Shown: positions 3,551 to 50,433 of the stretch, piece by piece
How positions within the stretch are numbered: position 1 is the first letter of the stretch
Layout: each line of letters begins with the position of its first letter
Origin: an uncultured Oribacterium sp.
Lineage (GTDB): Bacteria; Bacillota; Clostridia; Lachnospirales; Lachnospiraceae
DNA: 50,765 nucleotides
Assembly (NCBI GenBank): GCA_902485915.1
Contig: CABTMH010000169.1
Location: forward strand, 1 to 50,765
Direction of reading: 5' to 3'
Notes under the pieces: model-generated
What the model saw: only the letters and a program-made list of their open reading frames with translations
Database searches by the model: none
Told to the model about the DNA's origin: nothing
Translations under genes and position numbers: made by a program

Positions 3551-3636
3551 GTTCATAGTCCGTTCATATTTGAACCTGAATGTTAACAGAATGTTCACGT
3601 GCCCCACATACTTTGTTCACCATTGACCTATATATT
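3551..3636 (+). promoter_or_regulatory. 11-bp-phased GTTCAY direct repeats followed by a TATATT -10 (putative response-regulator-activated promoter)
   Basis: GTTCAT at 3551 and 3562; GTTAAC 3582, GTTCAC 3593, degenerate CCACAT 3604, GTTCAC 3615; TATATT at 3631-3636, 10 nt after the last box. Confidence 0.55.
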
Positions 3637-3642
3637 ATAACC

Positions 3643-3742
3643 AAGATAACAAATAAGTTATCGATTTAAGAAGATTTTTTTCATAATACTCGGGCAGGGA
3701 TCGAAGGATCACCTGCCCTCCTCCCTTTTATGGGGCTTTTTT
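3643..3742 (+). ncRNA. Candidate small RNA A (anti-start-codon and anti-SD tracts)
   Basis: ORF-free; 5' hairpin GATAAC/GTTATC, then GATTTTTTTCATAAT, GC hairpin 3692-3718, CTCCTCCC and a T-run. Layout matches candidate B. Confidence 0.6.
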
Positions 3743-3744
3743 CT

Positions 3745-3814
3745 TTACTTTTCTCTCGTCAACCGGCTTCCCGACACGTCTCCATGCCTGATCAGTACAC
3801 GTGTGAACAGTAAC
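3745..3814 (+). repeat. Intergenic REP/MITE-like repeat, copy 1
   Basis: TTACTTTTCTCTCGTCAAC...CCGGCTTCCCGACACG...CCTGATCAGTACACGTGTGAACAGTAAC. Confidence 0.85.
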
Positions 3815-27623: not shown

Positions 27624-27731
27624 GTTACGGTGCACGCGTCAACTGTCCTCCGGCAGGGGCGTGTCGGTCCTCCGTCCTGCTACCGGCTTCCCGACACGCC
27701 CCTGCCGGATCAGTACACGAGCGAACAGTTC
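27624..27731 (+). repeat. Intergenic repeat, copy 5 (full length, perfect 19-bp inner stem)
   Basis: TCCGGCAGGGGCGTGTCGG (27649-27667) pairs with CCGACACGCCCCTGCCGGA (27691-27709); ends GATCAGTACACGAGCGAACAG. Confidence 0.9.
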
Positions 27732-27857
27732 TCCTGAAATGAGGAGACCCCGGTGAAGCCGAAGCTCCACCGGGGCAATTATGAAAAATCTATCAATTGG
27801 AGAAAAATACCAACATTCATGTTGCACAGAACGCTTTCTTCATCTAACTTTCTGTAC
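27727..27857 (-). ncRNA. Candidate small RNA B (apparent paralogue of A)
   Basis: Minus strand: 5' stem TGTACAGAA/TTCTGTGCA, then GATTTTTCATAAT, 12-bp stem CCCCGGTGGAGC-TTCG-GCTTCACCGGGG, then CTCCTC. Confidence 0.6.
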
Positions 27858-27863
27858 ATTGTT

Positions 27864-27896
27864 AATATAATCTCGAAATATGAATAAATTATGAAC
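27864..27896 (-). promoter_or_regulatory. GTTCAT-N5-ATTCAT repeat, 10 nt, TATATT -10 (promoter of candidate sRNA B)
   Basis: Minus strand GTTCAT(27896)-aattt-ATTCAT(27885), 10 nt, TATATT(27869-27864); same spacing as at 3615-3636. Confidence 0.55.
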
Positions 27897-35684: not shown

Positions 35685-35751
35685 GTACCTATGTGTGAAA
35701 GACATCCGCAGAGTGTGGATGTCAAATTATACAAAATGGAGGATATCTATT

Positions 35752-36912
35752 ATGAAGAAGAGAATCTTAAGTGGCGTTCTCGCCGCAACCATGGTTGCAT
35801 CCCTTGCAGCCTGTGGCTCATCCAAGCCGGCTGAGACTACTGCAGCAGCTACTACGGCAGCAGCTACGGAGGCAGCTACCGAGGCAGCTGCTGAGGAGAC
35901 CACTGCAGCAGCAGAGGAGAAGGCTACCGAGGCCGCAGCAGACGGTGAGTACACTGTGAACGAGGCTGCAGCAGCTGACCCGGCTGTTACCCTGACCATG
36001 GCAGAGGTTAACCCGCTCGAGGGTACCATCTGCGGACAGATGGATACCAAGTTTAAGGAGGCTGTTGAGGCGATCTCCGGTGGTTCCATCACCATCGACC
36101 TTCAGGCATCCGGCGTACTCGGCGCAGAGCAGGACGTTCTTGACTCTATGCTCGGCGGTGGCGGAGACATCGATATGTCCCGTATCTCTGCATTCGCTCT
36201 GACTTCCTACGGCGCATCCAAGTCCGTTCTTCTTTCTCTCCCGTACGTTTTCGAGTCCAGAGAGCATTTCTGGAACTTCGTACACAGCGATCTCGGCGCA
36301 GAGATTCTGAACGAGTCTGAGGAGGCTGGTGTTGGTATCAAGGGCCTCTTCTACGGCGAGGAGGGCTTCAGACACTTCTTCACAGTTGAGAGCAAGCCGG
36401 TTTCTACCGTTGCTGATCTTAAGAACATGAAGATCCGTGTTTCTAACGACCCGATCATGCAGAAGATGGTTTCTTCTCTCGGTGCAAACCCTGCATCTGT
36501 TTCCATGACCGAGCTTTACTCCGCACTTCAGACAAACACGGTGGATGGTGCTGGTCAGCCGATCGCAAACTATGCTTCCAACCGTTTCGACGAGGTAGGT
36601 CCGAACCTTACACTGGATGGTCACACACTGGGCGCAATCGAGGTTGTTATCTCTGATGAGTCCTGGAACAACAAGCTGACCGACAACCAGAGAGACGTTA
36701 TCACCGAGGCTTCCAAGATCGCTTCTGATTACTGCCAGAAGATCGCTGCTGAGACAGAGGAGAAGGTTCTCGAGGAGCTCAAGGGCCGTGGCTGCAACGT
36801 CATCGAGATCGCTGATAAGTCCGAGTGGGAGGCTGCATGCGCACCGATCACCGAGGAGTATGCTACCGGCGAGCTTAAGGATGTGCTTGATCAGATCAAG
36901 GCACTTGCTTAA
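35752..36912 (+). CDS. dctP: TRAP transporter substrate-binding lipoprotein (DctP family)
   Basis: Lipobox LAAC, Ala/Thr/Glu linker, LSLPYVF, GFRHF, DLKNMKIRV, ELYSALQT. Confidence 0.93.
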   Translation: MKKRILSGVLAATMVASLAACGSSKPAETTAAATTAAATEAATEAAAEETTAAAEEKATEAAADGEYTVNEAAAADPAVTLTMAEVNPLEGTICGQMDTKFKEAVEAISGGSITIDLQASGVLGAEQDVLDSMLGGGGDIDMSRISAFALTSYGASKSVLLSLPYVFESREHFWNFVHSDLGAEILNESEEAGVGIKGLFYGEEGFRHFFTVESKPVSTVADLKNMKIRVSNDPIMQKMVSSLGANPASVSMTELYSALQTNTVDGAGQPIANYASNRFDEVGPNLTLDGHTLGAIEVVISDESWNNKLTDNQRDVITEASKIASDYCQKIAAETEEKVLEELKGRGCNVIEIADKSEWEAACAPITEEYATGELKDVLDQIKALA

Positions 36913-50242: not shown

Positions 50243-50433
50243 CTGTGACATGATAGCAATGAAATGAAGATTGCTTGCATGGACGAAAGCCAAGATCCGT
50301 ACAACAGTATCCTTTGGATCCAGTGAGCCTCCGGGCTCCGCCTGAGAGTTGAGACGGCAACCAAGTATAAGTCATGTAAGAGAACTTCAGGGAGCGAATG
50401 TCTAGTTTAGAAACTGACGGCAGGTCACTGTAC
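50243..50433 (+). ncRNA. Structured rpsJ (S10 operon) leader RNA
   Basis: GTGAC/GTCAC closing stem; TGAAG..CTTGCATG/ATGTAAG..CTTCA stem; GGAGCGAATGTC and AGTTT/AAACT elements; lies between the promoter and rpsJ. Confidence 0.6.

Follow-up and report, generated by a model that had tools for sequence, protein, structure and literature searches.

What is encoded at positions 3643–3742 of a 50,765-nt contig from an uncultured Oribacterium sp. (the whole contig is referred to as the window), with a minus-strand HAD hydrolase gene on one side and a plus-strand PfkB kinase gene on the other? A preliminary description had read this segment, here called A, as an ORF-free small RNA in which a 5' hairpin, an anti-AUG tract, a GC hairpin, an anti-SD tract and a U-run follow one another. 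All of these parts were recovered, the segment is free of overlapping ORFs of at least 80 aa, and its fold has a stability z-score of -3.56, with 1 of 200 shuffled sequences being equally stable. The parts of A are as follows:

3643..3742, plus strand: small RNA of subtype A, predicted transcript (fold, homologues, strand asymmetry and covariation).
3645..3662, plus strand: 5' hairpin, conserved at the genus level and variable across the family.
3675..3691, plus strand: anti-start-codon tract, U7-CAUAAU and then the complement of an SD–AUG spacer (alignment).
3692..3718, plus strand: GC-rich bridging hairpin, variable in sequence with its pairing kept.
3719..3729, plus strand: CU-rich anti-Shine-Dalgarno tract followed by U4; its core, CUCCUCCC, is invariant in the genus alignment.
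3722..3742, plus strand: weak 3' hairpin (3722–3735) and U-run (3737–3742), a possible terminator (fold).

By complementarity, U7 is assigned to Lys codons and CAU at 3682–3684 is the anti-AUG. With the stem folded, the two tracts complement SD-spacer-AUG-Lys-Lys, which is the pairing order that had been claimed for them. Folding of the free RNA shows that the anti-SD part at 3722–3725 can sit inside the small 3' hairpin; a 3' hairpin of that kind, and with it partial self-pairing of the anti-SD, occurs in 74 of 180 family copies, and a U-tract lies no more than 8 nt away in 163 of the 180. A terminator scan made no call at the 3' hairpin and U-run of A. Of the 28 distinct leaders seen in subtype A, 25 form a fold at the 5' end with a free energy of -3 kcal/mol or lower. 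Contigs from four RNA runs, which show neither strand nor ends, included one 62-nt piece covering 3685–3746 with 7 differences. A REP-like palindromic repeat lies directly downstream of A (3746–3780) and also of its paralogue B (27640–27730), and searches started from A and from B gave 5 and 17 further matches to it elsewhere in the genome.

Does A belong to a family that has already been named? The preliminary description had recognised none, and Rfam bears this out. Over A itself, with E up to 10, the best Rfam match was suhB (13.7 bits, E 6.1), which is nothing worth noting, the cores of 8 homologous loci gave no match, and the family of A has no Rfam match to RoxS/RsaE or LhrC. The only gathering-threshold match of Rfam 15 over the window was an S10-Clostridia ribosomal protein leader at 50251–50423.

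Homologues of A were found by blastn in 22 of 24 genomes of the same genus and in 0 of 16 genomes from other families. In the 18 genus homologues that were aligned, both tracts, the UUUUCAU and CUCCU stretches on whose conservation the original proposal had been made to depend, are invariant while the interior of the stem changes; the anti-start tract is identical in 18/18 of these blastn homologues and in 23/23 subtype-A rows, the latter having been selected by pattern. A scan of the genome for anti-AUG...anti-SD pairs returned 56 sites, and a strong enclosed hairpin was present only at A and at about 27790 on the minus strand, where a paralogue lies:

27727..27857, minus strand: small RNA of subtype B, core 27741–27788, with the same architecture as A and a shorter SD–AUG spacing.

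A third subtype, C, exists outside the window. A strict pattern matched 54 of 400 genomes of the family (reversed-pattern control, 0) and gave at least 120 matches in GTDB. Among the GTDB matches listed, the titles are almost all Lachnospiraceae, they include Oribacterium records with a core identical to that of A, and the carriers include the cultured species Enterocloster aldenensis and Blautia luti. Listed matches titled Prevotella (L101), Bacteroides (L142) and Selenomonadales (L141) have the core typical of B and may come from mislabelled bins; a match titled Alphaproteobacteria (L111) looks like a chance match. From 197 loci we took 180 distinct elements (34 of subtype A, 69 of B and 77 of C), which were picked by their tracts and are thus informative only for stem, promoter and strand, not for tract conservation. 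The covariance-model search of Lachnospiraceae that the preliminary description had proposed found the family widely, in at least 52 of 120 genomes (a lower bound, with 43 candidates scored per genome) and in 0 of 76 genomes of sister families of the order; the model was made from B and C, where A and B had been envisaged, and subtype A may be undercounted by it. Subtype A is a minority form, its 16-nt seed being present in 14 of 400 family genomes against 8 for the control. A loose pattern run on 300 genomes of the class returned 37 sites outside the family, and none of the 24 examined was sRNA-like with a box or a bridging stem. The usual neighbour of B is an Mn-pyrophosphatase gene and that of C a gene resembling, by eye, a small alarmone synthetase, and the neighbours of subtype A vary among loci. 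At one locus (L376, G241:C29), a pair of divergent family-like cores, of which one has a box, is separated by about 550 nt and may represent tandem paralogues.

Is the bridging hairpin maintained as RNA, and on which strand? Across the 7 outer pairs of the subtype-A stem, 98.8% of 161 cells are paired, 31 of them being compensatory; none of 500 shuffles reached the observed pairing, and slid registers gave 31–66%. Among 150 unique cores the median stem length is 11 pairs, with 200 G-U pairs when read on the plus strand and 26 on the minus strand. Of 98 tetraloops on the plus strand, 68 are GNRA and 8 UUCG, and there are none of these on the minus strand. The GNRA loops and the G-U asymmetry indicate selection on a single-stranded RNA of the plus strand.

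Upstream of both RNAs in the window are sequence elements that could serve as a regulated promoter:

3551..3621, plus strand: direct-repeat array of 11-bp period, consensus RTTCAYA, the last repeat starting at 3615; putative boxes for an OmpR-family activator (sequence, genus alignment).
3631..3636, plus strand: -10 hexamer of A, 10 nt past the last box (spacer test, genus alignment).
27864..27896, minus strand: promoter of B, with two perfect boxes, 10 nt and a -10 hexamer (top genome-wide score).

The first, second and last positions of the -10 hexamer of A are invariant in the 18 genus homologues, and transcription of A is predicted to start near 3643. One to five repeats, mostly two to four, precede the family copies with the same 11-bp period, and the spacer between the last RTTCAY and TAnnnT is exactly 10 nt in 152 of 175 copies; other spacers were seen in 1–19 copies each, except for 52 at spacer 12. 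A box 10 nt ahead of the -10 is the typical geometry of OmpR-family activators. Predicted transcripts range from about 75 to 142 nt across subtypes A, B and C.

A search with the promoter pattern alone, in 60 family genomes and this one, gave 36 matches against 2 for the control. Thirty promoter-picked loci comprised 14 with a canonical RNA (one of them B), 3 with a divergent RNA of the same plan, 7 with an htrA-like gene and 6 others, so that a CAU-hairpin-C-rich arrangement lies downstream of the promoter in 17 of the 30. This search supports an association of box and RNA in a way that is not circular. By eye, the pstS promoter of this genome has TTTACA repeats of similar geometry, which fell below scoring in a matrix scan, and pstS was absent from the 30 promoter-picked loci; the related pstS repeats leave room for PhoP as a possible regulator of the boxes. 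Two genes preceded by a box in this genome were discarded as regulon members, since the box of hpf was conserved in 0 of 5 cases and that of ftsH had 1 marginal counterpart among 26 others scored. Box-like promoters were also seen before a 363-aa protein without a Pfam match (G000:C175:5427-5560) and before a Zn_peptidase_2 membrane protease (C200:22693-22790). At a further site (L213, G000:C110:781-900), a good box and -10 lead into the 3' end of an oppositely oriented cell-wall-binding-repeat gene; they could yield another short transcript, with CAUAAU in it and a strong hairpin at its end.

Taken together, the conservation, the covariation, the strand asymmetry and the dedicated promoter support the original proposal that A is an unnamed small RNA with a split anti-RBS. 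We conclude that it is very probably the gene of a structured RNA that occurs family-wide, is uncatalogued and has a regulated promoter to itself.

Which mRNAs might such an RNA act on? The preliminary description had pointed to one start in the window:

35738..35765 (ATG at 35752), plus strand: translation start of a dctP lipoprotein gene, candidate target of A (co-fold; match to the TRAP DctP family).

The 14-bp helix with two G-U pairs that had been claimed between this start and A was reproduced by co-folding, and it ranks 17 of 1861 crude gene starts. With gene and lipoprotein calls made crudely by script, lipoproteins account for 15 of the top 50 co-folding partners of A and 31 of the other 1811. 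Of the lipoproteins in this genome, 29 of 46 start MK[KR]. Of 30 best-fit starts listed first in a survey of 30 family genomes, 13 belonged to lipoproteins and 19 to exported or membrane proteins, and MKK starts sampled in two other genomes comprised 28/57 lipoproteins and 45/57 exported or membrane proteins. The enrichment of lipoproteins is largely due to the Lys codons that follow AUG in signal peptides, and it arises in part by construction, as any RNA directed against an SD and an A-rich AUG context ranks MKK starts high. An AUU at -3 to -1 was considered as a signature of target starts. In this genome it precedes the AUG of 10/29 lipoproteins against 2/56 other starts, a bias not replicated in two other genomes (10/20 against 18/37). 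Genomes with and without a match to the RNA model differ little (9.2% and 7.0%; rank test, p = 0.08), and among genes of high codon bias AUU is found in 11% of non-lipoproteins and 13/28 lipoproteins. The signature was therefore rejected as partly a high-expression effect, without replication and weak across genomes. Of the exported-protein target class that had been claimed, the enrichment of lipoprotein starts held in this genome; it is mostly a Lys-codon effect, and the AUU signature did not hold. From sequence, a target class made up of exported-protein, Met-Lys-Lys mRNAs is plausible.

An alternative that we consider unlikely is that the RNA is real and acts on a single dedicated mRNA or a handful of them, perhaps by stabilisation or activation, rather than on an exported-protein class. 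The spacer tract of each subtype is near-invariant, as expected for a dedicated partner, the failure of the AUU class signature to replicate points in the same direction, and csRNA5 of streptococci alone has a positive effect on competence genes (in the part of PMC4507080 available). However, none of the starts in this genome is a match to the split site as a whole, and the best partners of A and B differ and are mostly imperfect. The one long match across the junction that was followed into other genomes, at gltX, was lost in 5/5 of them, and gltX was dropped as a dedicated target.

Somewhat less credence still is due to the idea that the conserved single strands bind a protein or act as an RNA sponge, their likeness to an anti-RBS being incidental or secondary. 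Invariant single-stranded motifs beside a variable stem are typical also of protein-binding RNAs, and the RNA is more strictly conserved than any target found for it. Against such a decoy, all three subtypes have tracts complementary to SD and AUG-Lys, correctly ordered and spaced, and the divergent members L236, L240 and L242 retain CAU (or CAC) and the C-rich tract.

A role for A as 5' leader of, or attenuator for, the downstream gene, or as a plain intergenic terminator, is highly improbable. A PfkB-family, kdgK-like gene does lie on the plus strand about 230 nt downstream, and U-tracts follow the stem, but a plus-strand gene comes next at only 2 of the 18 loci of subtype A and at 10 of all 61 loci, and a terminator would need neither invariant flanking tracts nor activator boxes of its own. 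At 43 of 61 loci the RNA has opposite-strand genes on either side, an arrangement that speaks for a stand-alone gene and against a leader. A functional minus strand is hardly credible at all: it does read SD-hairpin-AUG-Lys-Lys, as the start of a small peptide split by a hairpin might, most of the flanking genes are encoded on it, and split starts are known in another family (L355, L356), but the ORFs from the minus-strand AUG run from 3 to 86 codons (medians 8–14) with no conserved length, the tetraloops and G-U pairs both favour the plus strand, and the boxes and -10 are oriented along it. At L355 and L356, in another Clostridia family, an SD, a hairpin and then the AUG of a 297-aa lipoprotein-like gene follow one another, an arrangement that is the mirror image, in cis, of the plan of the small RNA.

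What else might a promoter of this type control? The box-bearing htrA-like genes among the promoter-picked loci, of which 5 were scanned, encode membrane-anchored trypsin-plus-PDZ proteins in which the His and Ser motifs found in active HtrA are missing; by eye, the genes are divergent from a mutS2-like gene. This protease-dead HtrA paralogue is found family-wide (L225, L226, L229, L243, L301–L321; G000:C192:8529-9533). Of 21 genomes across the family, 10 have a strong box in front of it, with none in reverse orientation, but in the window's own genus 0 of 5 do; the copy in this genome runs past the end of its contig. Before catalytically intact htrA, a box was present in 1 of 4 cases in one set and weakly in 1 of 2 in another, mostly not above shuffled sequences. 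Promoters of intact htrA have by eye a different repeat of 11-bp period, GACACA/AACACA-like (L446, L447, L451, L452, L454; G000:C180:1270-1320), which suggests that a second regulator may act there.

When the 56 parsed OmpR-family genes (beside 13 unparsed ones) were scored for a box of their own, the two best were orthologues of the gene at G000 C65:12777-13460, a candidate regulator that has the box in 4 of 10 orthologues and in this genome, and to which an NCBIfam scan assigned no name. A second candidate (C112:2958-4013) adjoins the mutS2/dead-htrA locus in three genomes and lies behind mutS2 in this genome.

A working model can be drawn from the anatomy of promoter and tracts, from which we infer transcription, the regulator, pairing in vivo and repression. 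A would belong to a group of sibling small RNAs in Lachnospiraceae (A, B and C) that act in trans and are switched on by an OmpR-family response regulator bound to the 11-bp repeats that overlap the -35. Its rigid GC hairpin would couple the anti-AUG/anti-Lys tract to the anti-SD tract, so that a three-way junction would let both pair with a single translation-initiation region, and the pairing may block 30S loading and lower translation. The best fit of SD to AUG after GGAG differs between subtypes (4 nt for B, 5 nt for C and 6 nt for A), which would suit coverage of a class of mRNAs and not of one partner. That class would consist of Met-Lys-Lys starts, about half of them lipoproteins, mostly solute-binding proteins. 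We regard it as likely that the RNA, under two-component control, represses the translation of multiple targets, Met-Lys-Lys mRNAs that are for the most part those of lipoproteins. More tentatively, and with the odds somewhat against it, the protease-dead HtrA chaperone and the sibling small RNAs may form an undescribed regulon for envelope or secretion quality control, in which the RNAs would recognise the mRNAs of exported proteins as a class by reading, across the three-way junction, the SD, the start codon and the Lys codons in the N-region of the signal peptide, each subtype being fitted to an SD–AUG spacing of its own.

Lachnospiraceae are dominant gut anaerobes, and to our knowledge small-RNA regulation in them is little described. 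A family-wide small RNA with a predicted promoter, a co-regulated gene and a target class can be tested directly in the cultured carriers. The stem-bridged split anti-RBS would be an unusual mode of start-site recognition and, if the model is true, recognition of Lys codons would allow nutrient-binding lipoproteins to be throttled as a class.

How does this RNA compare with known systems? A literature search confined to papers outside subscription found no prior description of the family. Table S1 of Fremin and Bhatt 2021, which has no sequence column, gave no motif match in the material available (PMC8040213); it is possible that the alignments of that study hold an earlier bare prediction of the hairpin.

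Similar in logic are small RNAs of the sigmaE and Cpx responses of enterobacteria (MicA, RybB, MicL, CpxQ), the arm of a stress regulon that cuts envelope-protein synthesis. They share the combination of chaperone or protease with small RNA, and differ in their unrelated sequence and structure, Hfq-dependent seeds and Gram-negative hosts. Within Bacillota, C-rich small RNAs are induced by two-component systems, RoxS/RsaE by ResD/SrrA and LhrC by LisRK. Pairing of a C-rich tract with the SD is common to these RNAs and ours, whereas a stem-bridged anti-AUG/anti-Lys tract is absent from them; RoxS pairs with SD regions through C-rich tracts, as stated in the available part of PMC4409812. The CssR box may resemble RTTCAYA. 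CssRS of Bacillus subtilis is of OmpR type and induces htrA genes upon misfolding of exported proteins (PMC12826053, in part); the excerpted text of PMC12826053 mentions no small-RNA arm, whereas here small RNAs carry the box, and that of PMC6057675 does not print the CssR box consensus. In regulons of CssRS type a box stands before htrA genes; here the RTTCAYA box stands before part of the dead paralogues and occasionally before intact htrA, which by eye has the GACACA-like repeat.

The strongest likeness is to the CiaR-controlled csRNAs, which the preliminary description had invoked in concept; given the promoter geometry and the HtrA-family gene in the regulon, it is stronger than was claimed. 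On the portions of the sources available, csRNAs depend on CiaRH for expression and occur only in streptococci (PMC3091779), and pair with both SD and AUG of targets that include comC and four transporter genes (PMC4507080). Sibling small RNAs with an anti-SD and an anti-AUG are thus common to both systems (PMC3091779, PMC8186281, PMC4507080, in part). The CiaR box is NTTAAG-N5-TTTAAG, a hexamer repeated directly after a 5-nt spacer as in the boxes here, and its distance of 10 nt to the -10 box, used to predict CiaR promoters (PMC3091779, in part), is that of the direct repeat in 152/175 copies here. An OmpR-family regulator and htrA in the regulon are also features of that system (PMC12826053, PMC4507080, in part); here the regulator is a predicted one and the HtrA protease-dead. 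In contrast, the CiaR TTTAAG is present in 0 of 175 copies, where the box is RTTCAY, and so is the nonamer [A/C]UCCUAAA[A/C] (0 of 175). In csRNAs both tracts lie in one unpaired region between stem-loops, whereas here a covarying stem separates them, and the hosts are Lachnospiraceae, not streptococci. By analogy, then, this RNA family would work like CiaR/csRNA/HtrA while failing membership of the csRNAs, which suggests that the CiaR-csRNA-HtrA logic of streptococci has either arisen again or is older than thought.
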